Shown here in pieces: positions 2,503 through 52,564 of a DNA stretch of 64,000 nucleotides (its first letter is position 1; the number at the start of each line of letters is the position of its first letter). The notes under the pieces were generated by a model. It did not search any database, was not told where the DNA came from, and saw nothing but the letters and a program-made list of their open reading frames with translations. Source of the DNA: Eledone cirrhosa (lineage: Eukaryota); contig OZ024755.1 in NCBI GenBank assembly GCA_964016885.1, positions 38,626,001-38,690,000 on the forward strand, given 5' to 3'. The position numbers and the translations under genes were made by a program.

Positions 2503-3610
2503 CTTCCCCACCCTCTCCCCTTCCCCACCGTCTCTCACACGCCACCCTCTGTCCTTCCCCACCGTCTCTCACACGCCACCCTCTCTCCTTCCCCACTGTC
2601 TCTCACACGGCACCCTCTCCCCTTCCCCACCGTCTCTCACACGCCACCCTCTCTCCTTCCCCACCGTCTCTCACACGCCACCCTCTCTCCTTCCCCACTG
2701 TCTCTCACACGGCACCCTCTCCCCTTCCCCACCGTCTCTCACACGGCACCCTCTCCCCTTCCCCACCGTCTCTCACACGCCACCCTCTCTCCTTCCCCAC
2801 CGTCTCTCACACGCCACCCTCTCTCCTTCCCCACCGTCTCTCACACGGCACCCTCTCCCCTTCCCCACCGTCTCTCACACGGCACCCTCTCCCCTTCCCC
2901 ACCGTCTCTCACACGCCACCCTCTCTCCTTCTCCACCGTCTCTCACACGCCACCCTCTCTCCTTCCCCACCGTCTCTCACACGCCACCCTCTCTCCTTCT
3001 CCACCGTCTCTCACACGCCACCCTCTCTCCTTCCCCACCGTCTCTCACACGCCACCCTCTCTCCTTCCCCATCGTCTCTCACACGCCACCCTCTCCCCTT
3101 CCCCACCGTCTCTCACACGCCACCCTCTGTCCTTCCCCACCGTCTCTCACACGCCACCCTCTCTCCTTCCCCACCGTCTCTCACACGCCACCCTCTCCCC
3201 TTCCCCACCGTCTCTCACACGCCACCCTCTCTCCTTCCCCCACCGTCTCTCACACGCCACCCTCTCTCCTTCCCCACCGTCTCTCACACGCCACCCTCTC
3301 TCCTTCCCCACCGTCTCTCACACGCCACCCTCTCTCCTTCTCCACCGTCTCTCACACGCTACCCTCTCTCCTTCCCCACCGTCTCTCACACGCCACCCTC
3401 TCTCCTTCCCCACCGTCTCTCACACGCCACCCTCTCTCCTTCCCCACCGTCTCACACACGCCACCCTCTCTCCTTCCCCACCGTCTCTCACACGCCACCC
3501 TCTCTCCTTCCCCACCGTCTCTCACACGCCACCCTCTCCCCTTCCCCACCGTCTCTCACACGCCACCCTCTCTCCTTCCCCACCGTCTCTCACACCCCAC
3601 CCTCTCCTCT
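2503..3610. repeat. 34-bp minisatellite (ccaccgtctctcacacgccaccctctctccttcc), ~32 copies
   Basis: Direct tandem repetition; explains ORF 2411..3703. Confidence 0.95.
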
Positions 3611-3687
3611 TTCCCCCCCTATCTCACACCCCACCCCTTCCCTTTCCCCACCCTCACCGCCAGCGTCACACTCACTATTTTCTATTA

Positions 3688-3870
3688 TTGGCAGAATCGG
3701 TAGAGGGTCGGACGCCATGCTTTGACGCATAGAGTTACGGCCCTTGTCATTCTGAGTTCAAATCCCGCCGAGGTTAACTTTGCCTTTCATCCTTACGGGG
3801 TCGATAAAATAAAGTACCAGTAATGCACTGGGTATTTGCTGGCCTTGTGCCTAAAGTAGAAACAATTATT
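3688..3870 (+). mobile_element. tRNA-derived SINE (family S1) with 14-bp TSD
   Basis: A box tggcagaatcgg, B box gttcaaatcc, central gcctttcatcc..ggggtcgataaaataaagtaccag, (att) tail; tattttctattatt at 3676-3689 and 3867-3880. Confidence 0.9.
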
Positions 3871-5142: not shown

Positions 5143-5224
5143 CCTTACCACCACTATCACCAACACTAACACCACCACTGCTACTACTACTATCATTACC
5201 TACACCACTATTACCAACACTAAC

Positions 5225-5288
<64 letters not shown>

Positions 5289-5290
5289 AT

Positions 5291-5330
<40 letters not shown>

Positions 5331-6312
5331 ACACTACTACTACTACTACTACTACTACTACACCACTACCACTATTACCAACACTACCACACCACTACCA
5401 CTATTACCAACACTACCACACCACTACCACTATTACCAACACTACCACACCACTACCACTATTACCAACACTACCACACCACTACCACTATTACCAACAC
5501 TACCACTACCACTGCTATCAACACCACCACACCACTACCACTACTACCAACACTACCACACCACTACCACTATTACCAACACTACCACACCACTACCACT
5601 ACTACCAACACTACCACACCACTACCACTATTACCAACACTACCACACCACTACCACTATTACCAACACTACCACACCACTACCACTACTACCAACACTA
5701 CCACACCACTACCACTATTACCAACACTACCACACCACTACCACTATTACCAACACTACCACACCACTACCACTACTACCAACACTACCACACCACTACC
5801 ACTATTACCAACACTACCACACCACTACCACTACTACCAACACTACCACACCACTACCACTATTACCAACACTACCACACCACTACCACTACTACCAACA
5901 CTACCACACCACTACCACTATTACCAACACTACCACACCACTACCACTATTACCAACACTACCACACCACTACCACTACTACCAACACTACCACACCACT
6001 ACCACTATTACCAACACTACCACACCACTACCACTATTACCAACACTACCACACCACTACCACTACTACCAACACTACCACACCACTACCACTATTACCA
6101 ACACTACCACACCACTACCACTACTACCAACACTACCACACCACTACCACTATTACCAACACTACCACACCACTACCACTATTACCAACACTACCACACC
6201 ACTACCACTATTACCAACACTACCACACCACTACCACTATTACCAACACTACCACTACCACTACCACTGCTATCAACACCACCACACCACTACCACTACT
6301 ACCAACACTACC
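5110..6312. repeat. (CTA)n microsatellite grading into a 29-bp minisatellite (ccacaccactaccactattaccaacacta)
   Basis: Tandem repetition; the 29-aa periodicity in ORF 4374..6404 equals three 29-bp units. Confidence 0.95.
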
Positions 6313-6850
6313 ATCAACATCATCATCACCAACATCTCTGCCATCAAGAACATTTATACAACCGATCTTTCAAAGTGAGAACCCTTACAAATGTAACTCA
6401 GTAATGGCCACGCCTCTCAATAGTCTTCAGCTAAACTTTAACTATTCTTCAATAGTTTTTTTTGAATTTATTTTTTGAAAATAATTTAGAAACTGTTTTT
6501 TTTAAAGACTCTTTGAAATTTTTGGAATTTTTAAAGATTTAAAAAAAAATATTCCTCTAATTTGTTGCCATAGTGATGAACGAGTGCTTTAATGTAATGG
6601 AACTTTTAACCTATGTGAAATATGATTGATGTATGAATAAACTCTGATGACGTCGACTCTGAATCATCACCTGTTGGCTATGTTATGGAATTATAACATT
6701 TTAAAGTCTTGATATTTTTAATTGTAATATTATTGTCCAATGGCGGAGATTTTAGACAGAAACATATGTCACGTTGATAATACTTTGAATCTTCGGTGTT
6801 TTTGAAATTAATATTTATATATATATATGTATGTATGTATATATATATAT

Positions 6851-9269: not shown

Positions 9270-9880
9270 CTAGACTCCGCCAGATGCAGACTGTACATCA
9301 ACATGTGTCATCTCTCTCCACAAAGTTTGATCACCAGCAGCAGAGTTCAAAGAGGAAAGATCAAGTCCAGTCCATAAGTTGACATTGTCAAGCCATCATT
9401 TTGGCTGCCGGACTCTGCTTCTCTTACCAGCCAACCTTCCTTCCAGGAATATATAATTGTTTCTACTTTAGGCACAAGGCCAACAATTACCCAGTACATT
9501 ACTGGTACTTTATTTTTATCGACCCCGTAAGGATGAAAGGCAAAGTTAACCTCGGCGGGATTTGAACTCAGAATGGCAAGGGCCATAACTCTATGCGTCA
9601 AAGCATGACGTCCGACCCTCTACCGATACTGCCAATCCAACGTCCAGGAATATATAATACCTTTCCATCACCAGCAGCAAAGTTCCAAGAGCAAAGACCA
9701 AGTCCAGTCCATAAGTTGACATTATCAAGCCATAATTTTGGCTGCCAGACTCTGCTTCTCTTACCAGCCAACCTTCCATCCAGGCATAACCTACTCACAC
9801 CACGTGTTGATCTTTTTATGTGGCCGTTGAGTAGTCTTGACTTGGCCATTCATGTAGTTGGTCTAAGTTTGGTAAAGGAT
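9270..9880 (-). mobile_element. RTE-clade LINE 3' remnant with an internal ~135-bp tandem duplication
   Basis: Minus strand encodes GHIKRS..LDGRLAGKRSR..WLDNVNLWTGL..AAGD..LWREM, matching the RTE ORF C-terminus pattern (GKRSRGR..W.DN...WTG....A.DR..WR). Confidence 0.75.
9455..9639 (-). mobile_element. SINE S1 with 16-bp TSD
   Basis: Near-full copy; tccaggaatatataat at 9442-9457 and 9643-9658. Confidence 0.92.
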
Positions 9881-10539: not shown

Positions 10540-10678
10540 TTCCAGAATTAGCCGTCGGAACGGCTTGAGCTCAGCCGTCGGGTCCCACTCGTTCCTATTA
10601 CCCACTCTACTACCGTAAGTATTGAGTACTTTGGTGCGTTATGGTCCACCTGGTTCCTTACCACATTTCCTTCGTTAT
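10540..10678 (+). mobile_element. Family E mini-element: 3' half of a hammerhead plus tail
   Basis: attagccgtc G(G/A)AA cggct tgagctc agccg TC ggg; other copies at 33333-33500 and 47191-47748. Confidence 0.65.
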
Positions 10679-13350: not shown

Positions 13351-13692
13351 GAGTGGGAATGACTTCAAGTCGGACCAGGTTTGCTCTTGCGTATTTATAC
13401 ATAAAATAAATATTTTAACCAAATAATTCTAAAGAATTTAATACAATTAAGAATATAAAATAGGAGAACGGCCATAGAAAGATGTTTGAAATAATATCAA
13501 CAACTTATGGAGGGAATAGACTCTCTAATTTCATTTGGACTTTCTGAATTTATTATGTACATACATACAAAAAGACAAACATGTACATATATATATATAC
13601 ACACATACACATATGTATATGAATATATATATACATATGGGAGTATTGAAGTTTGCTTGAAGCATTGTGGAATAATAAGATATATTTTCTTT

Positions 13693-15179
13693 AGGTCGTT
13701 TTGGAAGCCTCAAGGAGCAAATCAACGCCGCCTGGACCAACATCTGCGACCGGCGGAAGCTCCCGAAGAAGCTGAGATACAACTTCCTCACGAAGAACAG
13801 CAGACTACCCGCCTTCTACCACCTCGTGAAAACACACAAACAGGGACCCGACCTGAAGATCAGGCCCATCGTATCGAGCGTGGAAGGACCGCTCTACAAA
13901 ATTTCATGGCTCCTAGCCAGAATACTCAAACCCATCCTAGACACCTTGCCGGGACACGTAAACAGCCCCGAGGAGGTGTTGGAGCGCTTGCATCAAATGG
14001 ATCCCGACACCAGAAAGGCTAACAGATATGCCTTCAGCCTTGATGTAGTCGCTCTTTACACCTCGGTCCCGGCACTCCCGGCCGTTAATATACTGATGGA
14101 ACGCATCCAATCTACCGACCTACACTGCTTCGGGCTCACCACCACTGACATCCACCAACTCCTATCCATCGTCGTTGACAACTTCGGATTTATCGACCAA
14201 ACATACCAGCAAACCTCGGGACTGCCCATTGGCTCAAGCCTGTCGGGTGTGCTAGCGATCTCAAACATGGACAGCCTCAAGCACAAGGGACTCAACACCA
14301 CCCAACGCCGTCGCCTTTTTCTCAAGGTACGTTGGCGACATCCTCATCCTCACATCTTCCCAAGAGATGGCGAACAGAATCTATGAGACGTTCCACAACA
14401 CGGACGAGAACATTGATTTCAGTGTTGAACACCCCAGCGACGACGGGTCACTTGCCCTCCTCGACTTCCGAATCAACATCACGGAATAGGGAGGGATCCA
14501 CTCCAACTTCTACCGCAAGGCAGCCTGCAGGGATCTGTTCGTCCACTACAAGTCCGCCCTCCCTCAGAGTGCTAAAAGAGGGTACATCACGAACGAGATC
14601 ACGCGAATTAAAAACAGATGCAGCGATCCCGCGACTGGTGTCACCCATACCAAGCAATTCCTCAAAGTGCTGGAGACGAACGGGTACCCTGCTTCACTCA
14701 CAAACAGAATAAGAGACACCAGACGCAAGAGGCAGAGAAACACCCAAGACAAGTGCTTCCTTAAAATATCACACCTGGGCAAGAATACCACCAACGCTAT
14801 CCGCAAGGCTATACGGAGGGAGGGCCTCGGCATCCACCTGGCCCACTCGGGCTCCTCTCTGCGAAGATGCCTCTCCAGGAAACCCGGGAAATCGACTGAC
14901 GCGTGCTCCCTCAGAAACTGCCCGATGCGCCATACGAACTGTTGCCTACGCACATACGTCGTGTATAAGGTAGAATGTAACAAGTGCAACCACTGCTATA
15001 TAGGTAGCACAATCAGGCCGCTACACATCCGGATCAAGGAGCACATCAACACCAGGGCCTCGTCTTTCCGGAAACACATAACCAAATGCGGAAACAAAGA
15101 CTTAAGGCCCATTGTCACAGTTCTAGCGACGGAACGAATCATGGAAGCACTTTGGATCAAACACCTAGGGCCACAATAA
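13693..15179 (+). pseudogene. Penelope-like element, RT + GIY-YIG endonuclease, frameshifted and 5'-truncated
   Basis: FYHLVKTHK, IRPIVSS, SLDVVALYTSVP, YQQTSGLPIGSSLSG, RYVGD (degenerate YVDD at 14328-14339), NGYP, VVYKVECNKCNHCYIGSTIRPLHIRIKEH. Confidence 0.9.
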
Positions 15180-15884
15180 ATATCATAATGTATTAAAGGT
15201 ATCTATAGGAAGTTGATTACTCCTTATTATATATCGCTATAATTGAAATACCCACACAAAGTGCTATATCTTTATATCAAAATTCACTGTAAATACAGTC
15301 TAGTCACAAAACCTATTAAAGGACCAATTAGAATTTTGTCTACATAACCCCTGGTAAGCTATGGAGCAGCGTACGGCTGTTTGCATGATAAAATCAAATA
15401 CATCTCTTGGGTAAACAAATACATCCCTCATTTACAATGTCATTAATCTATCCAATAAGTTATACATGCATATATAACTCATATATAATTCATTGCACCA
15501 CCCTACATATAAGTTAGACAGATTCCTTATGTTAATGAATTAATCCTATATATCTGATGTTATTACTCCATACATTTAATTACAGATGCATATATAATTC
15601 ACTGCCGTATCTAGTATTTAAAGTTTATATAAACTGTATTATATTTCAATCCCTATATAATTATAAGTAATTAAAAGTAATTATATTAAAAGTTGGTGTT
15701 TATGGGGATATTTCTAGGGTATAAAGTTATAGATAGATAGAATGATTTGTGACGAGGAAAGGGTGGATCAGAGAGTGTGGTGTAGTGGTGGAAGGCAAAC
15801 CCTTGAGGTGTGGTGTTAGAAGCGGTGATAGGTTCAAGTCTGACATTGCTATATATTGGGTTTAAAGTTTTGGAAGGAGTGTCG

Positions 15885-16370
15885 GAAGCGGTGCTGGCAC
15901 GACGCAAACACTTCCGATTTTTTATTAAGGAGGTTAAGGTTTGAAAAGATTACAGTATGGGTCTCTAGTAGACAGAGGTTACGGAATTTATTAGGTGGTT
16001 TGTACGATGCCGCCTTACCTATCACTTCCCATTGAAGTGTATATGATCTATTTCTAGTTTTCAGATAGTGTATGTAGCTAGATAGTGAAGTGGAGTTGGC
16101 TAGACTGTGTTTTTTGAAAGAATGGAGATGTGAGTTGTATCTCGTTTTGAAGCAGTTCGAAGTAGAGCCTATATAGGTTTCAGAAGAGTTGCTAGTTCTG
16201 ACCGTGCAAGAGTAGATTATGTCCTTGATTAAGCAGTTTTTAGCTAAAGGGCAGGTTCTATTAGATCTACAGTTACATTTATATTGGATGTTAACCTGTA
16301 GATTATTATGTTGTGTAGAAGTCTGGTTGTTAGGTATTGCATTATGGCTATGAAGGTTGTCGCTCCTAAT
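15885..16370 (-). pseudogene. PLE GIY-YIG endonuclease fragment
   Basis: KCNCRSNRTCPLAKNCLIKDIIYSCTV..TYIGSTSNCFKTRYNSH..KSEVFASCQHR. Confidence 0.85.
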
Positions 16371-17965: not shown

Positions 17966-18300
17966 AGAAGTTATATTTAATTTGTTGGGATACAACAAGC
18001 AAATATTTTTATAACTGATATAAAGCACTCAACAAAATTTTCGGAGTAAAAATACAATATATTAACAAATGGAAACTATATTTATAAAACCATATTTATT
18101 TCATTATACATATTTCAAGGACACCAAAGCAAATTATGGTGCGCTTTCATCAGATAAAATATAATATAGATAAGTTTTATAAACAAATATTGACATACCC
18201 TTAAAAGAATGCGACCATGTCTGTTGGAAGCTCCCTTGAAATATGTATAATGAAATAAATATGGTTTTATAAATATAGTTTCCATTTGTTAATATATTAT
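17966..18300. mobile_element. Family A asymmetric palindrome; hammerhead at 18097-18161 (-)
   Basis: RC tattttat CTGATGA aagcgcacca..tggtgtcctt GAAA tatgta TA atgaaata; the right arm starts inside stem II. Confidence 0.8.
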
Positions 18301-18311
18301 ATATATATATA

Positions 18312-19312
18312 TATTTTCTTTCCATCGCACATATTATTAAACCCTTAAATATTATTCTTAATACATATTAACATTTTCTTTCCATCACACATATTATTAA
18401 ACCCTTAAATATTATTCTTAATACATATTAACATTTTCTTTTCATCGCACATATTATTAAACCCTTAAATATTATTCTTAATACATATTAACATTTTCTT
18501 TCCATCACACATATTATTAAACCCTTAAATATTATTCTTAATACATATTAACATTTTCTTTTCATCGCACATATTATTAAACCCTTAAATATTATTCTTA
18601 ATACATATTAACATTTTCTTTCCATCACACATATTATTAAACCCTTAAATATTATTCTTAATACATATTAACATTTTCTTTTCATCGCACATATTATTAA
18701 ACCCTTAAATATTATTCTTAATACATATTAACATTTTCTTTTCATCGCACATATTATTAAACCCTTAAATATTATTCTTAATACATATTAACATTTTCTT
18801 TCCATCACACATATTATTAAACCCTTAAATATTATTCTTAATACATATTAACATTTTCTTTTCATCGCACATATTATTAAACCCTTAAATATTATTCTTA
18901 ATACATATTAACATTTTCTTTCCATCACACATATTATTAAACCCTTCAATATTATTCTTAATACATATTAACATTTTCTTTCCATCACACATATTATTAA
19001 ACCCTTAAATATTATTCTTAATACATATTAACATTTTCTTTCCATCACACATATTATTAAACCCTTCAATATTATTCTTAATACATATTAACATTTTCTT
19101 TCCATCACACATATTATTAAACCCTTAAATATTATTCTTAATACATATTAACATTTTCTTTCCATCACACATATTATTAAACCCTTAAATATTATTCTTA
19201 ATACATATTAACATTTTCTTTTCATCGCACATATTATTAAACCCTTCAATATTATTCTTAATACATATTAACATTTTCTTTCCATCACACATATTATTAA
19301 ACCCCTCAATAT
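18312..19312. repeat. 60-bp tandem array, ~17 near-identical units
   Basis: attttctttccatcacacatattattaaacccttaaatattattcttaatacatattaac repeats in register with the 60-nt lines. Confidence 0.97.
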
Positions 19313-19738: not shown

Positions 19739-19861
19739 CATGGAACTCTTTTAACCATCTTTTGATCTTATATATTATGTATACTCCAGTCCTACAAACT
19801 GTAGAGTGCTTCTTATCCGATATCTGCATTGCTTTATTGTACTACAATAAAACTCACCTCC

Positions 19862-21924: not shown

Positions 21925-22377
21925 TAGAAGGGTGTATTTAATTTGTTGGAAGTCCGACAAATATAAATGTTTATAACTGATTTAGAGCACTCAACAGTTT
22001 ACTGGAGTAAATATTCAATGATATTAAATAAATGGAAACTATATTTATAAAACCTTATTTATTTTATTATATATATTTCAAGGGCTCCAAGACACATTGT
22101 TACGCTTTCATCAGATAAAATACAAAGTTTGCTTTATAAATAGAGACATACCCATGAAAATCATACATTATCGGTTGCATATTCTCTGGATAGTCAGACT
22201 ATCCAGTGAATTTCCAACCGATAAGGTACGATTTTCATGGGTATGTCTCTATTTATAAAACAAACTTTGTATTTTATCTGATGAAAGCGTACCAATGTGT
22301 CTTGGAGCCCTTGAAATATATATAATAAAATAAATATGGTTTTATAAATATAGTTTCCATTTATTTAATATCATTGT
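21925..22377. mobile_element. Family A palindrome with two complete hammerheads (22060-22122 -, 22270-22332 +)
   Basis: ~180-bp inverted arms centred on ctggatagtcagactatccag; only the left arm carries the extra ~90-bp tail. Confidence 0.88.
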
Positions 22378-23891: not shown

Positions 23892-24279
23892 TCAAAGGAA
23901 TATAAATTAAAATAATGTTACATAATATAATGTTCCATGTATTAGTTTTTACTATGGTGCCTTTGTTTCATCAGCTGTCAGCCATAATCAAGCAGTACTC
24001 ATCTGTCGAGGCTGCATTTTGTGAGATCTGCCTATGGATAACAAGATGGCTGCCAAAGGGCATATTTACCTTACTAATTAGAGGGTGGTTTCAGGGGAAG
24101 TAACTTCTCGAGAGATTAGAGATTGTGTGTATTTTATAGTTATGTGCTAGTAATTAAATTATTTAATTGAGAGACAATGTAGGGGAGGTAACTTATAATT
24201 ATCGAGTTGTTCATAGCAATTTAACTTATTAGCTACAATTAGAGATGGGGCTACATGACTAAGTTGGGTCAAAAACTCT

Positions 24280-25560
24280 ATTGGCGAAGGAATTAGCCCT
24301 TCGATGTTGACAGCTAATGGTTACCTCCGTTCTATCGTTAATTGGTAGAGGTCTTGATAGAGTTATGTAATATGCTTCCGTAACACAGAGATCACAAGAT
24401 TTCCTTCGTCCATTGAACGGTTGGGCCCTAGCTACGATATCCCATTTTAGTGAGTGTTGAACGTTGTTTAATTTAAGGTTTTTAATGAGCCTAGCTAGCG
24501 ATGTCGAACATCTGTTGCTAGGGTCTCGGAAGGAAAAAGAGTGCGCGTTATAGCGTACCTTAAAAGGGTTAGAGGTGGACCCGATATAAGAGCTGGTATT
24601 CGAAGCAGTCTCAACTGTGCACCTATAGACTGTTGGGTGTCAGGCAGTGTTCATTTAATGGGCATGCATTAGGGTACCGGCAGTTGCAGTTGCTTCTGCG
24701 GTTAGTGAGAGTAGGGTTATTTAACCTAAGCAGTTGGTCCGTGCTAGAAGGATTAGATGGGGGAGGTGTGCTACTAGAGTAATTATTGGTTTAGTGGCGT
24801 GGTGTATTTGATAGGGGTGGTGGTACCGCGGTGTGGGAGTTATAGTGTCTTAGCTTATGATGGTTACTGAACGCGATGAGGCTAGCTAGGTTAGGTGTAG
24901 TGGAGAATGAGATTTTAATGTTGTTTTTATTAAGGAGTTTGTAATATCTATGGTTAGGGGGGGGGGGAAGTGTTTGGATAGGATAGAAAAGAAGCGATTG
25001 GGGATATTAGTGGCTAGATTAGATGAGAATGGTGTGTTAAGCCAGGTGATCCTTCCTAGGGTTATTATTACCTGGGGGTTTGTTATTTGTCATCCCATTT
25101 CTCATTCCTATTCTAGGGTTGATTCTTAGTTTGCTACTAGGAGTGGGGAGCAGGCCGCTGCCACCATTAAAGTTCCCTGTATAGGTGCTGTTACTGCTAA
25201 AATTCCGGCGAATCTGGCTATATGCTAAGGTATTTCTAGTTCTAGTGTTAAGTTTATTATGGTGAGTTGCTGTGTTATGGCATTTTGGTATGTAATAATT
25301 TGATTGTTTATAACCAGATTCAGAGAGAGCTTTATTATAATATTGTGCGTGGTTTATAAATATCTCATTTGCTGATAGCATTGAGATCCTATAGGAGATA
25401 AATTTGATTACTGCTCTGATGATTGCCGGTGGGTGGTTAGAGTGTGGGCTAATATATGTGAGTATTTCGCCTGGTTTATGGTAAGGATTATAAAGGTTAT
25501 TGTTGAGATCAAGGGTCACGTCTAGGAAGTTTACTACTTTATGGTTCAGCTCGATTTTAT
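24280..25560 (-). pseudogene. PLE, RT C-terminus + GIY-YIG, frameshifted
   Basis: VNFLDVTLDL..PYHKP..SNHPP..; NCNCRYPNACPLNEHCL; SYIGSTSNPFKVRYNAH; CDLCVTE; SCQHR. Confidence 0.88.
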
Positions 25561-25738
25561 GGTTTAACCCCTCACGTTTTGGTTCAACCCCTCACGTTAT
25601 GGTTTCACTCTTCATATCACGGTTTAACCCTTCACGTTATTGCTTAAACCCTCACGTTATGGTTTAACTCTCCACGTTATGGTTTAACCCTGGCGTTATA
25701 GTTTAACCCTGACGTTATAGTTTAACCCCTGACGTTAT
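25561..25738. repeat. 20-bp minisatellite (ggtttaacccctcacgttat) x9
   Basis: Tandem, diverged units abutting the PLE 5' truncation. Confidence 0.85.
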
Positions 25739-26264: not shown

Positions 26265-26405
26265 TATATTTTGATTATGAGAATATTTTTCATTTATTAA
26301 TATTTTGAATAATATTAAATACTCCAGAAAAATCTCATGTCGAGTGCTTCTAATCTATTGTAAAATTGTTTCGTTGAATAATCAACGAGCCATAATAATC
26401 TTTGG

Positions 26406-29270: not shown

Positions 29271-29336
29271 TTTATATATTAAATATATGTATACATATAT
29301 GCATATATATATATATATATGACCCTCCCAAAGTAT

Positions 29337-29377
<41 letters not shown>

Positions 29378-29384
<7 letters not shown>

Positions 29385-30660
29385 ATACTTTGGGAGGGTC
29401 ATGTTGCCAATGAGAAACACACGCAGCAGTTTGCTTTCACTTCAATTTATTATAAATTTCCGGTTGATTGGTTGGTTCCACAACTGGACGGTTGTTCATA
29501 TATTGTCAAAGTTCTTTCGTGACACATTCTGTGACCTCTTCCGTGACTAGGGATTCTTTTCTTTGTTTTGTGCCTCTCCTTTGTTCTGTCCTACACCATC
29601 TTGTTTTGTGTGTGTGTTGTATGCTTAGTTTGCGCATGTGTTACATCCGGGTGTCTGTGTGTGTTTTTATTTGTTTATTTATTTGTTTATTTACATGTTA
29701 CTAGTTAGTTGTTTGTTCTATGTGTGTGTGTTTTCATTTTGTCCTTAATTGTAAGTTGTGATGTTACTATTCCATTCATGTTTTCTATTTAATTTTGGTT
29801 GGAGTTCATTTATGTTTATTGCCTCTGTGATTTGTCTAAACAAATTGCGTCTTTTCTGTGTGTAGATTTTATTTTTATTTCTATGTTCTCTAATTTGCCC
29901 TTATGTTCTATTTTAGCATGTTGGTGGAGTACTGATGAGTCTTTTCTATTTTGGAGTTCTCGCCAGTGTTCATTTAATCGTTTTCCTATGCTACGAGCTG
30001 TCTCACCTATGTACACTACATTCTTATCTTTACATTGTCCCTCAGTACATCTTATGCTATATACTACATATTTAGTTTTACAGTTAATATGGGGGCTTAG
30101 TTTACAGATTATGCATTTCTTATCCATACAGGGAGGTCTTTGAAAAGGGTATGTATTACTAATTAGTGTTTTTATGGACGTACCTGGTCTTTCTATCTTA
30201 ATATTAATTTTATGTTTATCTAGGGCCCTTCTAAATTTGTAAGCTAGTTCACCTCTAGGGGTTGTATTGATGAACATTACATTCTGGTATTTATTACTAT
30301 CATACCATGAGTTTATTTTATTAACCTTATTCCTAGTTCTATCTATTCTATTCCAAAATTTGCTCCTATACAAGGGGCAGGTCCCATTTGTATCATTATT
30401 TACCATTTTTTCCCATTTGGTTCTGGCTCCTCTATATACTCTGAGTTTATCTCTCTGATTCTAACCAGAGAACTGCATACGGTGGATGAAGTGTTGTATG
30501 TGTCTCTCTAGTTCTTTGGGGTTACACATGCGGGACACGTTCATCATCACCCTTACTAAATCCGCAATCAATATGTTGATTTTGGTGTGGTCCGAAACAG
30601 CTGAGTTTCGGTGGATCAGGTATTTGGAAGTCATGGGTTTGACATAATGGGAATGGAGGA
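29378..30660 (-). pseudogene. PLE (second lineage) 3' half: RT thumb, GIY-YIG (ORF 29816..30406) and 3' UTR with hammerhead near 29504-29547
   Basis: HSHYVKPMTSKYLIHRNSA..; PLYRSK; YVVYSIRC..VYIGETARSIGKRLNEH..SVLHQHAKIEH. Confidence 0.88.
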
Positions 30661-32673: not shown

Positions 32674-32865
32674 AATATAGAAATGGCTTCTACAGGACTA
32701 GAACTGTTTCATTCAGAGGAAATCACCAGGAAGCCCTGATGATTTCCTCCGAATGTAACAGTTCTAGTCCTGTAGAAGCCATTTCTATATTAGATATTTA
32801 TACTCTGCTATGTATTGAGTACGTTACTTACTGTGTCTACCCTCGATTGAACCTGGGATAAACAT
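32674..32865. mobile_element. Family F head-to-head hammerhead pair with tail on the right arm
   Basis: HHR at 32685-32735 (-) fused to HHR at 32736-32780 (+); each has one core mutation. Confidence 0.78.
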
Positions 32866-35221: not shown

Positions 35222-35405
35222 AATAATTGTTTCTACTTTTGGCACAAGGCCAGCAATTACCCAGTGCATTACTGGTACTTTATTTTATCGACCTCGTAAG
35301 GATGAAAGGCAAAGTTGATCTCGACGGGATTTGAACTCAGAATGGCAAGGGCCGTAACTCTATACGTCAAAGCATGGCGTCCGACCCTCTACCGATACTG
35401 CCAAT
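35222..35405 (-). mobile_element. SINE S1
   Basis: Near-full match. Confidence 0.9.
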
Positions 35406-35439
35406 CAATAATGAGGAGCCGTTGAGGAAATAACAGCAC

Positions 35440-39675: not shown

Positions 39676-40108
39676 AAATAATGGTTTCTTATAAAGGCAC
39701 AAGGCCAGCAATTTTGGGGTGAGGGAAAAGTCAATGAAATTGACCCCAGTGCGTGACTGGTACTTTATTTTATCGACCCCGTAAGGATGAAAGGCAAAGT
39801 TAACCTCGGCGGGATTTGAACTCAGATCATAAAGGGCCGTAACTCTATGCAGCAAAGCATGGCGTTCGACCCTCTACCGATACTGCCAATCCACCGCCCT
39901 CAAATTGCTAAAAAATAATTGTTTCTACTTTAGGCACAAGGCCAGCAATTACCCAGTGCATTACTGGTACTTTATTTTATCGACCCCGTAAGGATGAAAG
40001 GCAAAGTTAACCTCGGCGGGATTTGAACTCAGATCATAAAGGGCCGTAACTCTATGCGGCAAAGCATGGCGTCCGACCCTCTACCGATACTGCCAATCCA
40101 CCGCCCTC
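39676..40108 (-). mobile_element. Two tandem full-length SINE S1 copies (long and short 3' variants)
   Basis: 39676-39900 and 39914-40108, separated and flanked by aaattgctaaa(g/a)aaataat. Confidence 0.9.
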
Positions 40109-40630: not shown

Positions 40631-40951
40631 AATAAATGAAGCTAAATTTTAATCATTTGACTTTTATTTAACATTATTTTACACTACTCCGGAGTAACCA
40701 AACCAACCTGCGCACTTCGTCGAGTGCTCCAGCCTGCATACTGAGGTGTTGGTATACAACCAACATAAACTCAATATATATATATATAAAATATTAAACA
40801 TTAAATGTTTAATATTTTATCTTGACTCTGTATACCGTTTATCTTTCACCGAAAGTGATTTTTCATTACATCTCTTCTTTCCATGATATCCGGAATACAT
40901 TGAGTTCTTCATACGGATTGGACACTACCGTAAACTCTTGGTAGATTTATC

Positions 40952-41022
<71 letters not shown>

Positions 41023-42367
41023 GATATTAAACAAATGGAAACTATATTTATAAAACCATATTTATTTCGTTATATATATTTCTGGGATATCATATTAAAA
41101 ATATGTTATGCCTTCCTCAGACAAAATACAATACATAAGCTGTTTTATAAATAATTAGTGACATACCTTGTAATAATGCAACTTCCTTTTAAAAAGTTGA
41201 TTTGGTAGTGAAACTGTTATGATAGTTATATAGAAAGAAAACGAAGATGAGAAGAAGAAGGTGAAGAGATGTATGTAAATAAAAAAGAAGAAGATGAAGA
41301 GATGTATGTAAAGAGAAAAGAGATGTATGTAAAGAAAAACAACGGAGCGAGATAGAGAGACAAGGATAGAGAGAAATACATTGATGGTGAAAAAAAACAA
41401 ACAACATAGTAGGCTGCTTTTTGACAGATGATCATCGTATATGTGAGAGGTTAAGGGAAGGGATACAGTTAGATTAGTGTATAGGAGAAAAAGAAAGAAA
41501 GATGATATATTTAAAATATATAAAAAATATATTATGTCTCATCCATTTGAATTATCAATTTTTATGAATTAGGCATTATAATGTAAATATCAGTATTCAT
41601 GAATGAGACACATATCTATAATGTGTAAAAAAAAGTGACCACATGCTCAGTTTAAAAATTCTTAGGTCTATAAGCAAAATCTGAGACAAAACTTCAAACA
41701 TAAGTATATATGCATTCTCGTGAAAAATGAGAAAAGAGAAGGTTATCTCAAATTCAAGTTGATAAATATAGACGCACAAGTGAACCTAGGTGATACGCTG
41801 CACTGATTCTTATATTTCATGAAAAACTTCAATGTGTCAGAAAAGAAAAACTTCAATGCGTTAGAAGAGATTCCACCCTACATACATTTACATACATATA
41901 TACATATATATAGACACAAAACATATAAGATATACATTAACATCTTAAATAATCATCGATCAAGCATAGAGTAGACAACAGATATCAATATTAAAATTAA
42001 AAACGCCAAGAATATCTTCGTCACTCCACAGAGTATCTAGGGACGCAAGAGAACATAGTATGCCACGCATATCGGTCATAGAATCAGAGTCAAAAGCAAA
42101 CAAGACCAAAATTGCTCACCAAGCCTTATTTATCAGAAATCATTCAAAACTTATTCTACAAATGCTCTTATATTTATTATAGAAGTTTATCCAGCTTAAA
42201 AATTTATTCAAAAGATTGGGACCAACGCCAATTTTAGGGTAGTTTATTTAATCTCATTAATTATATATTCATGCGGAAAGGTTTTAAAGAAATTGAAGGA
42301 ATCGAAAGATTTATCGCCAAGTATCACAAATAGTCAAATACCTTAAGTAAATATACTACATTTTATA

Positions 42368-43042
42368 CTACATTTTAAATTTATATTTATATTTAAATGT
42401 TGAGTTCAATCTATGTCTGCAACAGCTGAATAAATTGGTTCGTAAATTAAGGGAATTTTTAGATTTTAATATAAAGAATATCTCCTCCGCGCAGAGGTCA
42501 CAAGTCTCAGAAGAGGAATTAAAAGGAATCCCTTTTGAGACTATATTCCAAACCATCGAATATCCAACTTTATCATGCTTAAGTTGCCAGAGTAACCCTG
42601 ACAGCGATGTTGATGATTTTTTATTTGGATCCGTGAAAGAATTTTTGTGATTATTATAGCGAAGTTTAAATTCTGTCGAGGTGGAACCAACATAATTAAA
42701 AGAATTTAAATCAGTTCTAACATTACAGTTGTATATTATATTTTTAACTAAGCAATTGTTATTTAGCGGACATTTAGATCTATCTCCACAGTTACAGTTT
42801 TTTAGTTGAATATTGTTTAGGCTATTTTCGGTATTTTGGCTAGGTTTTAGATTCCTATTATTTATTCTATTAATATTTTGTGCTAAATTTTTGGTGGACG
42901 AGTACGTTAATTTTATAGTATGTCTATTAAAATTTGAGTGATACTTATGTGTTCTAGGGAAGCGTTTGTCAAGAGCATTAAAAAATAGTTTAGCGATGTG
43001 GGTTTTAATGTTTAGTGAGAAAGGGGGGGGGGGGCAAACCAT
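42368..43042 (-). CDS. GIY-YIG endonuclease part of the PLE polyprotein (continues 43012..44379 across a frameshift)
   Basis: CNCGDRSKCPLNNNC linker, NIIYNC..NYVGSTSTEFKLRYNNH, CDLCAEE, LN..SCCRH. Confidence 0.88.
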   Translation of the reverse strand: MVCPPPPFSLNIKTHIAKLFFNALDKRFPRTHKYHSNFNRHTIKLTYSSTKNLAQNINRINNRNLKPSQNTENSLNNIQLKNCNCGDRSKCPLNNNCLVKNIIYNCNVRTDLNSFNYVGSTSTEFKLRYNNHKNSFTDPNKKSSTSLSGLLWQLKHDKVGYSMVWNIVSKGIPFNSSSETCDLCAEEIFFILKSKNSLNLRTNLFSCCRHRLNSTFKYKYKFKM

Positions 43043-44379
43043 ATTATATTTCTAGTTCTATTTCTTTTCTGGTTTTTGAAATTATTGTAGTGCTTTCTAT
43101 TATAGTTAAAGTTGTTACTGTAATTAAAATTGTTGTTATTTTGGTTAGTTTGTCTATTATCGATGTACATAATTTTATCACTATATCCTGCTCTAGCTAA
43201 AGCATCATTATAATATTGGGCTTTTTCGTCAAAAATATTTTTATTGGAAGAGATTCTAGAGATACGTTTTTGAACAGAGTTTACTATAGTATTTTTGACA
43301 GATCTGGGGTGATTGGAGCTAAAATTGACATAATTCAAGTTTTCATTTAACTTGTGAAATGGATAGTGAAGACATGTGTTGAGATTAAATGTTACGTCTA
43401 GGAAATTGACTATTCTATGGTTATTCTCAATTTCTATTTTTAGATTAAGGTAATTAAAAAATTGTATAATTTGTTTTCTTTTCTTATTTAGTTCAGAGTT
43501 ATTATTTTCAATAAGTAAAAGCATGTCATCTCTATATAAACCTCCGGTAACACCGGGTATTTTCCTATGCAGCGAATTAATTATAAATAGGCCCACAAGG
43601 TCCGTTACCTGAGCTGAGTCTGATGATCCCATAGTAATGTCAAAATTATTATCTCTATCTGCCCTAGTCCATAGTTGGTTATTAAATTCTATCAAAGTTT
43701 TCCTTGCCGATAATATAATGTGCATTTCATTGCTAGTTAGGTCTGTATGCTTGAATGCGTAATTTAGTGCCTTATTAAGTAGATTAGGGGTAATGGATGA
43801 ATAGTAGTTAGCAATATCTAGTTGAATAAATTTATTATTATTGTTATATTTAATTTCATTAAACCACTCAATGACCTCCCCAGTACCCTTCCACAAGGTC
43901 AAGCCAGGTAAACAATTCAAGTCCTTAATTTGCTGTATCACTCTGTCTAGAATGTTCTTGCTAAGTTTACCCAGGTCAGATTTTGATGGTGCAGTCAACC
44001 TGACTGGCAAGTCATTTTCAAAATTTCTCTTGTGATCTTTCATATTGATCTTGGGTTTCCTAGGCACGAAAGGTTGTGTTTTGTTCTCAATTTCCAACTC
44101 ATGCATTATACATGATGCCTCAACATTCATTTTCTCAAGTTCAGCCTTATCTGCTACCTTGTACTTTTTCCTTAGTTCTTTCAGTATGAGGCCATTATAC
44201 ATGTCTTTTTCCACTCCATAGAGGTTGTTGGTTTTGTCCGATTTCACCAAGATCTTCTCTGTTCTCTCTAAGCTCGCAATGTTATCCTTAATGCTTTTCA
44301 GATATTCCTGGCCATTGAAGCTTCTCTTGAATCTGACTCCTTGTATGATAGAAATTATATCGTTTTCAAAATCATTCAT
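43012..44379 (-). CDS. PLE reverse transcriptase (N-terminally truncated)
   Basis: SDKTNNLY, MKDHK, FIQLDIANYYSSI, FDITMGSSDSAQ, GLYRDD, NFLDVT, SNHP. Confidence 0.92.
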   Translation of the reverse strand: MNDFENDIISIIQGVRFKRSFNGQEYLKSIKDNIASLERTEKILVKSDKTNNLYGVEKDMYNGLILKELRKKYKVADKAELEKMNVEASCIMHELEIENKTQPFVPRKPKINMKDHKRNFENDLPVRLTAPSKSDLGKLSKNILDRVIQQIKDLNCLPGLTLWKGTGEVIEWFNEIKYNNNNKFIQLDIANYYSSITPNLLNKALNYAFKHTDLTSNEMHIILSARKTLIEFNNQLWTRADRDNNFDITMGSSDSAQVTDLVGLFIINSLHRKIPGVTGGLYRDDMLLLIENNNSELNKKRKQIIQFFNYLNLKIEIENNHRIVNFLDVTFNLNTCLHYPFHKLNENLNYVNFSSNHPRSVKNTIVNSVQKRISRISSNKNIFDEKAQYYNDALARAGYSDKIMYIDNRQTNQNNNNFNYSNNFNYNRKHYNNFKNQKRNRTRNIIWFAPPPLSH

Positions 44380-45109
44380 TTTTTTTTACACATTATAGAT
44401 ATGTGTCTCATTCATGAATACTGATATTTACATTATAATGCCTAATTCATAAAAATTGATAATTCAAATGGATGAGACATAATATATTTTTTATATATTT
44501 TAAATATATCATCTTTCTTTCTTTTTCTCCTATACACTAATCTAACTGTATCCCTTCCCTTAACCTCTCACATATACGATGATCATCTGTCAAAAAGCAG
44601 CCTACTATGTTGTTTGTTTTTTTTCACCATCAATGTATTTCTCTCTATCCTTGTCTCTCTATCTCGCTCCGTTGTTTTTCTTTACATACATCTCTTTTCT
44701 CTTTACATACATCTCTTCATCTTCTTCTTTTTTATTTACATACATCTCTTCACCTTCTTCTTCTCATCTTCGTTTTCTTTCTATATAACTATCATAACAG
44801 TTTCACTACCAAATCAACTTTTTAAAAGGAAGTTGCATTATTACAAGGTATGTCACTAATTATTTATAAAACAGCTTATGTATTGTATTTTGTCTGAGGA
44901 AGGCATAACATATTTTTAATATGATATCCCAGAAATATATATAACGAAATAAATATGGTTTTATAAATATAGTTTCCATTTGTTTAATATCGTAAACCTA
45001 CTCCAGAAACTGTCGAGTGCTTTTATATCAGTTATAAAATATTTACTCGTTGTAACCCAACAATCTTAAATAAAACTTTTGCATATATATATATATATAT
45101 ATATATGCA

Positions 45110-46611: not shown

Positions 46612-47138
46612 CTAACGTCTGATCGAGAGCTTTATTCGGTTTGTGGAAAGGAATTCATTCCTTTGTTCAAAATTTAAATTTTGACCGCCAAAAACCGGGG
46701 CTCGCCTCCCTTTGGGAAAACCATGTGACCGCCAGCAGTGTTAGTGCTAAAACTCACACCCGGCAGCGGCAGAGAACGGATACCTGTTGAGAAAGTGAAA
46801 CCTCTGTTCGATCTTCCAAAACCAATAACTTGGATACACCGCAAGTGGATTTTGTTGATTTCGAATTCACAGAAACCTAGCGGAGATATTGCTTAATATC
46901 GACGCGATGGCCCAGGTTTGTCAAATTATCCTGAGTCGGTTTTCTCGTTGCTTTGGTCCTTGCGGCTGGCTTACCGGTCGCAGTCTTCAATTTGCCAAGC
47001 TGTCTAAACGTAATGTTATTACTCTAAGGTAAAATACCTTATTGAGTGCTTAGCTGCACATTCCGATTGCATTCGTTAGCTTAGCTGCAGCCAGAGCTTC
47101 GATTATGCTGAACTTCCATCTGTATATATATACATATA

Positions 47139-47194: not shown

Positions 47195-47494
47195 AACCAG
47201 TAAGACCCCGACAGCTGAGCTCAAGCCGTTTCGACGGCTAATTCTGGACTAAATGAAAATTTATATATATATATATATATATATGAAAATTTATATATAT
47301 ATATAACGAAGGAAATGTGGTAAGGAACCAGGTGGACCATAACGCACCAAAGTACTCAATACTTGGCGTAGTAGAGTGGGTAATAGGAACCAGTAAGACC
47401 CCGACAGCTGAGCTCAAGCCGTTTCGACGGCTAATGCGTCCAGAATTAGCCGTCGAAACGGCTTGAGCTCAGCTGTCGGGGTCTTCCTGGTTCC

Positions 47495-49778: not shown

Positions 49779-50101
49779 ATAGGAAGTAAAATATAAAATA
49801 GTGTGGTGAAGTTTTAGTGTGTTATACTTAATTGTCAGACAAGAGGTACCAATGCTATGAAAGTATAACGTAGTACAATAATAGTATTACTATTAGTAAT
49901 CGTATTTCTACTAATAGTGGTAGGCTAGCTATAGAACAAGGGTTCTCTCTCTCACGTACGTCCATACTATATGATCTGGTGCCACCCGAACGTACATCCA
50001 TAGACGTGCGTCCGTGTGCATATGTAGAAATTAGGTACACACCTGTCTACATCCCAGATCTGTACACAGGTGTCTAATCTATGAGCATACACTGTGAATA
50101 C

Positions 50102-51422
50102 GTACCCGTACATGCACATTGATCGATCAATATGTATGCATATATATAGGTACCCGTACATGCACATTGATCGATCAATATGTATGCATATATATAGGTA
50201 CCCGTACATGCTTATTGATCGATCAATATGTATGCATATATAGGTACCCGTACATGCACATTGATCGATCAATATGTATGCATATATATAGGTACCCGTA
50301 CATGCTTATTGATCGATCAATATGTATGCATATATAGGTACCCGTACATGCACATTGATCGATCAATATGTATGCATATATATAGGTACCCGTACATGCT
50401 TATTGATCGATCAATATGTATGCATATATAGGTTCCCTGTACATGCACATTGATCGATCAATGTGTATGCATATATAGGTACCCGTACATGCACATTGAT
50501 CGATCAATGTGTATGCATATATAGGTACCCGTACATGTACATTGATCGATCAATATGTATGCATATATAGGTACCCGTACATGCACATTGATCGATCAAT
50601 GTGTATTCATATATATATAGGTACCCGTACATACACATTGATCGATCAATGTTTATGCATATATAGGTACCCGTACATGCACATTGATCGATCAATATGT
50701 ATACATATATAGGTACCCGTACATGCACATTGATCGATCAATGTGTATGCATATATAGGTACCCGTACATGCACATTGATCGATCAATGTGTATGCATAT
50801 ATAGGTACCCGTACATGCACATTGATCGATCAACATGTATGCATATATAGGTACCCGTACATGCACATTGATCGATCAATAATCAACATGTATGCATATA
50901 TAGGTACCCGTACATGCACATTGATCGATCAATAATCAATATGTAAGCATATATAGGTACCCGTACATACACATTGATCGATCAATGTGTATGCATATAT
51001 AGGTACCCGTACATGCACATTGATCGATCAACATGTATGCATATATAGGTACCCGTACATGCACATTGATCGATCAACATGTATGCATATATAGGTACCC
51101 GTACATGCACATTGATCGATCAATAATCAACATGTATGCATATATAGGTACCCGTACATGCACATTGATCGATCAACATGTATGCATATATAGGTACCCG
51201 TACATGTATATTGATCGATCAATATGTATGCATATATAGGTACCCGTACATACAGATTGATCGATCAACATGTATGCATATATAGGTACCCGTACATGTA
51301 CATTGATCGATCAACATGTATGCATATATAGGTACCTGTACATACACATTGATCGATCAACATGTATGCATATATAGGTACCCGTACATGCACATTGATC
51401 GATCAACATGTATGCATATATA
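50102..51422. repeat. 46-48-bp palindromic minisatellite, ~28 copies
   Basis: ggtacccgtacatgcacattgatcgatcaatgtgtatgcatatata. Confidence 0.95.
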
Positions 51423-51987
51423 GGGACCCACATAGAACCCAGGTGGGTACACAGTGGCCTAATCCGAGGACACAGACTATCCCCATGTATCCATATGTGC
51501 ACACATATACAGCAACCCATGCACATATACAAACATACACACATACACACGTGTAGACATGTATATATTCATATAAGTACATACAGGCGTAGGCACACAA
51601 CACATATATACCCAGCACATAACCACACATATATATGTACATATACATACATATATATACATATGCACGTGTAGACATGTATATATTCATATACGTACAT
51701 ACAGGCGTAGGCACACATCACATATATACACAGCACATAACCACACATATATATGTACATATACATACATATATATATATACACACGTGTAGACATGTAT
51801 ATATTTATATAAGTAAATACAAACGTAGGCACACATCACATATATACACAGCACATAACCACACATATATATGTACACATACATACATATATATATATAA
51901 ATATATAAATATACACATACGCATACATATGTCGATATGGACACACACAGACAGACGCCTACTTCCTATACATACACACACGTGCAC

Positions 51988-52026: not shown

Positions 52027-52213
52027 GTTATTCCGGGTTGAATCGGAGGTAACCACAGTAAGTAAGGTACTCAATACATTGCAGAGTATAAAAGTTTTAA
52101 TATAGATGAGATTCTACAGGACTAGAACTGTTTCATTCTTTAGAAATCATCATTTTGATTTCTAAAGAATGAAACAGTTCTAGTCCTGTAGAATCTCATC
52201 TATATTAAAACTT
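52022..52213. mobile_element. Family F asymmetric palindrome
   Basis: Arms meet at the hammerhead core (~52150); tail on the left arm. Confidence 0.78.
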
Positions 52214-52227
52214 ATATATATATATAT

Positions 52228-52564
52228 GCAAAAGTTTTATTTAAAATTGTTGGGTTACAACAAGTAAATATTTTATAACCGATATAAAGCACTCAACAAG
52301 TTTTTGGAGTAGATATACGATAGTAAACAAATGGAAACTATATTTATAAAACCATATTTATTTCATTATACATATTTCAGGGATATTCAGCTTCCTACCA
52401 TAATGGTGGCTTATATTTATGGTACGTCAAAATTATTTATAAAACAGTTTATATATTGTATTTTATCTGACGAAGGCATGCCATATTTTTAATATGGTAT
52501 CCCTGAAATATGTATAATGAAATAAATATGGTTTTATAAATATAGTTTCCATTTGTTTACTATC

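Follow-up and report, generated by a model that had tools for sequence, protein, structure and literature searches.

Hydra-clade Penelope-like elements (PLEs) carry a bulged hairpin twice, as a first (M1) and a second (M2) copy, between the hammerhead and the start codon, and their genomic copies end 4-8 bases before either of them. Comparison of these sequences makes it likely that each hairpin is a protein-bound RNA ruler, setting an internal start of the reverse transcriptase (RT). The elements were studied in a stretch of 64,000 nt of Eledone cirrhosa (positions 38,626,001-38,690,000; genome of 3.0 Gb), referred to as a whole as the window, and in a larger sample of 1,064,000 bases of this genome, used for the motif and arm counts.

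The carriers of the motif are Hydra-clade PLEs. Regarding the protein, family A has open frames of 741-749 aa in copies other than that of the window, with YRDD and a GIY-YIG-type motif, while the two frames of the truncated, frameshifted window copy gave no Pfam match. The marks of the clade were taken from Craig et al. 2021 (PMC8557442), which lists DKT, RW[K/R], a CxCX5C linker and, at the C terminus, GIY-YIG; the family A protein possesses DKTN (DKT instead of DKG), RWR and not RWK, CNCRDRSKC as the CxCX5C linker and a C-terminal endonuclease (EN) having CDLC and CRH as the CxxC and CxH around its end, and no CCHH. Its RT shares 33-51% identity with the 120 unnamed or hypothetical relatives listed, the clade being assigned from these marks, and the nearest named relatives among the matches listed are those of Argonauta hians. 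The AlphaFold model of the protein has a mean pLDDT of 89.7, and its top three structural matches are all TERT entries. In addition, family A elements are inserted in (TA)n, as in the Hydra clade, for which Craig et al. (PMC8557442) likewise describe a (TA)n target, a hammerhead, an inverted 5'-truncated arm and an optional tail; the family A unit, of about 3.7 kb, exceeds the usual <3 kb given there for the clade.

The family A insertion of the window spans 41020-45083 (4.06 kb), with (TA)n runs on both sides, and consists of a minus-strand long arm with a truncated ORF, whose 3' end lies at 41020, and a short inverted arm bearing the tail (Table 1). The hammerhead-like motif of this family finishes about 45 nt 5' of the tail-less end; its core boxes and stem I were recognized by eye, and it is not the minimum-energy fold (RNAfold) and has no Rfam match. 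Other family A copies are young, and 25 of the 44 matches listed for the family A end share the top score at 100% identity, the first-look candidates for this end amounting to 1,901 in the genome. In family A, back-to-back arms mostly meet between -174 and -191 (44803-44835 in the window), where these inner junctions lie beside a palindrome at 44820-44827. The window also holds minisatellites and a SINE-like repeat of roughly 190 nt, with many copies at 82-96% identity.

Table 1. Positions in the window of the family A insertion and its parts, of the first-copy hairpins (M1) and of other repeats.
Feature	Position	Strand	Remarks
(TA)n target, left side of family A insertion	40956..41021		
Tail-less long arm, 3' end	41020..41638	-	Meets (TA)n 5-7 nt ahead of would-be M1 start
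Hydra-clade RT + GIY-YIG ORF	42371..44379	-	5'-truncated; frameshift near G run at about 43023-43034
Tail-bearing short inverted arm (3' UTR), 619 nt	44376..44994	+	99.8% identity to tail-less arm
Hammerhead-like motif, family A	44886..44951	+	Core boxes and stem I by eye
Family A tail, 89 nt	44995..45083	+	5-nt spacer, M1, then two more predicted hairpins
M1, family A	45000..45021	+	ACTC stem, 3-bp inner stem, 2-nt bulge, GAGT, GCT
(TA)n target, right side of family A insertion	45084..45105		
M1, family A subfamily	18024..18047	-	
M1, family A subfamily	21986..22008	-	
M1, family A subfamily	52288..52310	-	
M1, family C	40686..40728	+	Tail-less sister end at about 8090, minus strand
M1, family E	10604..10630	+	
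M1, family E	47351..47377	-	Paired tail-less arm finishes at about 47495
M1, family F	32802..32823	+	
M1, family F variant, ending ACC	52066..52087	-	Paired tail-less arm finishes at about 52212
M1, family H	19783..19810	+	Tail-less sister end at about 48328
M1, family L, 1-nt bulge	53470..53492	+	Tail-less sister end at about 53552
M1, family X	26321..26348	+	
M1, further family, 7-bp inner stem	47021..47050	+	Beyond those in the first-pass annotation
SINE-like repeat copies	3683-3870, 9453-9636, 35222-35410, 39909-40097		And more than ten other places
Minisatellite, 34-nt unit	2508-3652		
Minisatellite, 29-nt unit	5218-6313		
Minisatellite, 60-nt unit	18313-19312		Adjoins family A arm
Minisatellite, 46-nt unit	50098-51429		

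The first-pass annotation had named seven tail motifs of the form ACTC-N-GAGT(A/G)C(T/G), and all seven bear it, on the plus strand and 38-61 nt ahead of a (TA)n run. The motif is longer than first noted, being a bulged hairpin, RCTC-[variable stem-loop]-UY-GAGY-RCY, with an inner stem and a 3' bulge usually of 2 nt. Its enrichment is seen from 13 non-redundant matches in the window versus 0-3 in each of 20 dinucleotide shuffles, and 50 of the 55 motif matches in 464 kb scanned have a (TA)4 run within 140 nt. With a relaxed pattern, the 1,064,000-base sample gave 241 matches, 150 of them with TATATA within 130 nt, these being ACTC/GAGT (129), GCTC/GAGC (11), GCTC/GAGT (8) and ACTC/GAGC (2). 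The families had been regarded as otherwise unrelated, which does not hold, as A, C, E and H all lead into Hydra-clade ORFs, although nothing is alignable among the tails of these four families outside the motif. The view of the tail as a conserved element applies to the covarying hairpin and not to the tail as a whole, the hairpin occurring twice and the second copy, beyond the tail, fixing the tail end.

This tail motif is a bulged hairpin with strong compensatory changes. Across 20 family representatives the inner stem beats shuffles (Fisher p=2e-4), several single families not doing so by themselves. Structure counts were made on 73 non-redundant motifs of metagenome relatives, in which the bulge reads TT (50), TC (12) or TA (9) and the 3' triplet is ACT in 67. 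The first inner pair, mostly C-G (48) or U-A (21), is formed in 70 of the 73 with a 2-nt bulge, compared to 1, 2 and 13 with bulges of 0, 1 and 3 nt, and the second and third inner pairs are Watson-Crick in 46 and 41 motifs versus 21 and 18 in permutations (p=2e-4 each, relatedness being uncorrected). Regarding the outer stem, an alignment of 50 rows, formed by 44 of the 73 metagenome motifs and 6 window motifs, has 197 of 197 cells paired, with G-C in 44 and A-U in 6. Moreover, positions -7 to -4 before the hairpin are U/A-rich, with T (42) or A (25) at -5 among 71 motifs.

Rfam gave only sub-threshold matches in the window among the matches listed (150 of 347), none of them at the family A motif, and a single chance match at E=3, with no family, in the hammerhead-M1-M2 region. 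The hairpin as a relic hammerhead stem III was rejected, as there is no CUGANGA/GAAA core directly 5' of the stem; in most metagenome loci the tail motif lies 45-63 nt 3' of the GAAA box. As a separate observation, stem III of several Hydra-clade hammerheads in File S2 of PMC8557442 reads ACTC-n-GAGT, the outer-stem pairs of the hairpin.

The position where copies end was analysed in 290 arms of the 1,064,000-base sample, of which 123 have a tail and 167 do not, the junction of the latter being resolved in 120 and unresolved in 47. Among the resolved tail-less ends, 89 overlap -8 to -4 of M1 and 31 fall outside, compared to about 13 expected in this interval if ends fell on any TA from -45 to the tail end, copies not being fully independent; end points are far from random relative to the motif, random ones being what would have spoken against the annotation. 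By family, ends at -8 to -4 were counted in E (29/35), A (23/29), H (13/16), F (12/22), X (4/4), C (4/6), L (3/3), G2 (1/3) and G (0/2), both ends of the last lying at -3 to 0. The six tail-less ends named in the first-pass annotation are all true junctions to (TA)n, and their closeness to the ACTC stands, with about 4-8 nt in place of the proposed 3-15 nt; the family H end is ambiguous further 5' because the template itself is TA-rich.

The annotation also had the tail-less arms stop at a TA, which would pair with the nicked target. Stopping at a TA is common and is not required, since at the main junction of family F the homology amounts to a single T and a TA at -2/-1 is passed over, indicating that distance, and not TA pairing, picks the site. 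A site just upstream of the motif is indeed fixed, TA pairing being minor, with 1-5 bp of primer homology, and the end position being set by distance. This bears on the reading in which TA microhomology alone sets the ends in an AT-rich region and the hairpins are kept for promoter activity, RNA processing or translation of the ORF, which lies 40-90 nt farther on. Some TA or T homology is present at most junctions and M2 keeps a fairly constant distance to the start codon, most metagenome loci having it at -34 to -52, as such a reading would have it; however, there are many further TA steps, both within 45 nt and in the tail, at which no copies end, and the distance to the hairpin is kept while the tail varies from 55 to 99 nt or more and the loop from 3 to about 60 nt, so that this explanation is regarded as improbable.

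Arms frequently stand back to back, as seen in 97 pairs, of which 73 consist of one tail arm and one TA-ended tail-less arm, followed by 7 of a tail arm with a short arm lacking a clear TA, 2 tail-tail (the only pairs with tails on both arms), 2 short-short and 13 others; 96 arms had no partner in this count, and in a separate set of inverted-arm elements 1 of 10 had tails on both arms. The independence of such events was checked in family A with 30 genome-wide loci selected by the tail end, 22 of which have an adjacent inverted arm. The partner arm visibly ends at the same base (+/-1) in 19 of the 22, two leaving the locus and one stopping early, and the 22 insertions possess 20 distinct inner junctions. 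Distinct inner junctions with the same partner end indicate that family A events are independent and that the ends are made anew at each insertion; inheritance of the tail-less end from a master copy is consequently rejected for this family, and may hold for part of family H, where junctions are repeated.

The same pairs bear on the origin of the tail-less arm, which might lack a priming event of its own if a single cDNA started before M2, folded back and halted at a barrier formed by M1. A large number of the short insertions form almost perfect palindromes, their inner junctions lying at inverted repeats, as expected from folding back, which needs the tail arm to be the longer one; in family A the tail-less arm is longer in 12 of 20 cases, the tail arm in 4, and 4 are equal. 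Furthermore, the tail-less arm of the window copy holds the whole ORF present there, and M2 would be left unexplained. Fold-back alone was rejected on the 12 of 20 cases, since a tail-less arm that is often longer and ends that are made anew mean that fold-back of one cDNA cannot explain all ends, and this origin of the tail-less arm is judged highly improbable overall.

In full-length tandem copies of family A the tail continues into the 5' UTR, and M2, which is not in the window, starts 8 nt past the base where the tail of the window copy stops. This M2 is a compensated copy, GCTC...TT-GAGC-GCT, with 17 matches in 40 loci, some overlapping. The prediction of M2 from family A was tested in other families by a search for the tail end plus GCTC, which gave 273 matches in family H, with M2 complete in 13 of the 15 loci examined, 51 in family C (complete in 14 of 15) and 7 in family E, where M2 is present in 2 of 7 and a third has a point change. 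Family F yielded no M2 (0/9 and 0/1 loci). A Hydra-type ORF follows downstream (tblastn) in 15/15 loci of H, 14/15 of C and 2/7 of E. As a side observation, the family F tail extends at two loci into a sequence having only the 3' part of an M2-like motif, one of these loci then entering a Hydra-type ORF.

Tail ends were followed in 75 tail copies of families A, H, C and E; 64 were resolved and 51 of these overlap -8 to -4 of M2, the intervals relative to M2 being wide in A (-9 to -3) and E (-6 to 0). The tail corresponds to the M1-M2 spacing, because tail-less and tail arms stop 4-8 nt before M1 and M2, respectively; this spacing is about 92 nt in A, 90 in H, 99 in C and 78-82 in E. When a Hydra-type family was chosen by its EN protein alone, 6 of 20 loci end at one base, 7 have a tail, and a hairpin with a loop of ~60 nt starts 8 nt past that base in the 3 tails examined. 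An older family has a degenerate hairpin and scattered ends. In the window, a Hydra-type family at 24262-25591 (minus strand) has a tail of about 180 nt, and the loop of its hairpin is long, at about 60 nt. Additionally, in full-length family A elements the 5' pLTR is nearest to its own 3' pLTR in 7 of 7 informative elements (0-5 differences, versus at least 5-11 when set against the closest other one; a further 3 overlapped too briefly to be informative), which fits a circle or a tandem transcript in which one template is copied twice. At one locus more than two family A units stand in tandem, from which RNA having M2 behind the 3' UTR could arise.

Regarding the breadth of the signal, a metagenome scan provided 77 loci in 65 groups, 34 of them with the full 5' flank, and in the latter two hairpins were found in 21, one in 8 and none in 5, with an M1-M2 spacing of 55-83 nt. 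The motif occurs in the metagenome 5' flanks 67 times in sense versus 6 in antisense (11.3 kb), and in the ORF bodies 26 versus 7 times (156 kb). Among 13 comparisons listed of metagenome 5' and 3' ends, 7 stop or diverge at -2 to -4, two of these passing into clean (TA)n. Two other PLE families of E. cirrhosa, which we take to be Neptune-like and Penelope/Nematis-like, have tails of their own, and the canonical pattern, which misses long-loop variants, is present in 0 of 20 loci of each. The window itself holds a Neptune-like PLE at 29300-30460 (minus strand), with its own two-ended pattern, a tail of about 63 nt and no RCTC/GAGY hairpin, and a third PLE family at 13495-15900 (EN 14490-15176), having a fixed end before (TA)n and no motif; the Neptune-like family may use a different paired signal.

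As seen by eye in the published Hydra consensi (PMC8557442 File S7), the motif is present in 4 of 6, from three phyla: the 3' end bears it in Hydra-2_Amil (coral) and Hydra-2_Ajap (sea cucumber), the 5' end of Hydra-1_Ajap (sea cucumber) has it twice, and Hydra-1_Crog (copepod) has a variant at both ends, with GCCC/GGGC at the 5' end; it was not seen by eye in the consensi of Hydra-1_Obim and Hydra-1_Amil. Naiad and Chlamys gave no clear case among the matches listed, and the RNA stretch printed in Fig. S1B of PMC11167929 for PAc, an element of the Poseidon clade from Anolis, has no RCTC/GAGY-RCY. The hairpin is thus a signal of the clade and not a universal PLE signal, as it was not seen in the two other PLE families or in the PAc stretch.

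As M2 is never found in tail-bearing inserts, it acts on a precursor, most simply the RNA. With the hairpins as paired RNA rulers, the EN would nick both strands of (TA)n, and one nicked 3' end would come to lie on the U/A patch of M1 (-7 to -4) and the second on the one preceding M2, each start involving 1-5 bp of primer pairing to the nicked (TA)n, so that there would be one RT start per hairpin and per target strand. Both 3' ends would then be extended on an RNA continuing past M2, either a tandem transcript or a hammerhead-made circle, the template order required being 3' UTR-hammerhead-M1-M2, and short inverted repeats would be the places where the two cDNAs become joined, head to head. 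The tail would then be the RNA stretch from one start site to the other. More tentatively, the sequences leave room for an RT dimer with one protomer per hairpin on a unit-length, hammerhead-circularised RNA, starting on both (TA)n strands at once. If so, the hairpin pair would be a portable two-site initiation cassette, one mechanism would explain tails, back-to-back arms and pseudo-LTRs, and retrotransposition would be primed without any RNA 3' end.

The hairpin could also act in DNA, where the GIY-YIG EN would recognise its single-stranded or extruded form and cut the TA-rich patch 4-8 nt away, the ends then being cleavage sites. The patch at -7 to -4 resembles the (TA)n target in being T/A-rich, while family F ends at a U-run without a TA step. 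As described by Craig et al. 2021 (PMC8557442), the tail is ascribed to EN-mediated resolution, and DNA recognition by the D. virilis EN requires the tail, as cited in Frangieh 2024 (PMC11167929); yet in that same report the PAc RT starts mapped on RNA coincide with the genomic tail ends. In bacteria, the GIY-YIG enzyme SsnA cleaves ssDNA close to a hairpin, for which both sequence and structure matter (PMC11893778). As to the strand that folds, G-U versus A-C pairs count 13:5 in the metagenome motifs and 5:5 in this genome, and 18:10 when combined (p=0.09), so that either strand may be the one that folds; the antisense strand has the lower folding energy in 52 of the 73 metagenome motifs. Cleavage would moreover require an extra priming step 3' of M2 and ligation to the target, of which there is no sign, and an action in DNA is therefore considered unlikely.

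Returning to the RNA rulers, tails, inverted arms, TA targeting and internal initiation are already published, and the hairpin as a new cis-element of a known clade is well-supported. In the literature searched there is no description of the hairpin, its duplication or a ruler, subscription papers and Repbase reports being further sources that may bear on it; the available parts of PMC8557442, PMC13282606 and the preprint 10.64898/2026.07.22.740005 describe no such hairpin. How PLEs make tails and inverted arms is a named open question in Craig et al. (PMC8557442), where EN resolution is held to produce the tail and its length is put at 30-40 bp, compared to the 55-99 nt or more found here as hairpin-to-hairpin spacing. 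In vitro work is limited to one study, which observed internal initiation and did not identify the feature that fixes it (PMC11167929). For this question, the hairpin offers a short, covarying, cross-phylum signal that is duplicated within the element and whose ruler distance can be measured, and the proposed mechanism is specific and cheaply testable. It also provides annotators with an exact boundary rule for Hydra-clade elements, which are abundant in this genome.

A close known case is PAc, whose RT starts in vitro at two internal RNA sites matching the genomic tail ends, with both target strands cut and extended, a requirement for RNA 3' of the start site and a predicted dimer (PMC11167929). 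Two internal starts bounding the tail are thus common to PAc and to the elements described here, while no conserved motif or ruler is defined for PAc; its initiation involves a stem-loop that is AC-rich, lies within the ORF and is described as non-homologous to the target, and no reads were found at the hammerhead site (Frangieh et al., PMC11167929). Hammerhead-made circles, as required by one form of the template, have been shown for animal retrozymes (PMC7229834). Concerning SsnA and its NTS (PMC11893778), the likeness lies in a GIY-YIG protein together with a hairpin in which the sequence of the stem is important and the loop is not; however, SsnA is bacterial, single-domain and without an RT, being a precedent only for the action in DNA. 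If the ruler holds, it would offer a compact means of positioning RT starts within an RNA, among the nearest relatives that telomerase has. RT-bound RNA structures set a copying start or stop in telomerase RNA template definition, hepadnavirus epsilon and the DGR spacer. Unlike these, the signal described here is duplicated, each copy marking one end of a double-ended insertion, and the parallel with telomerase is an analogy at the RNA level.
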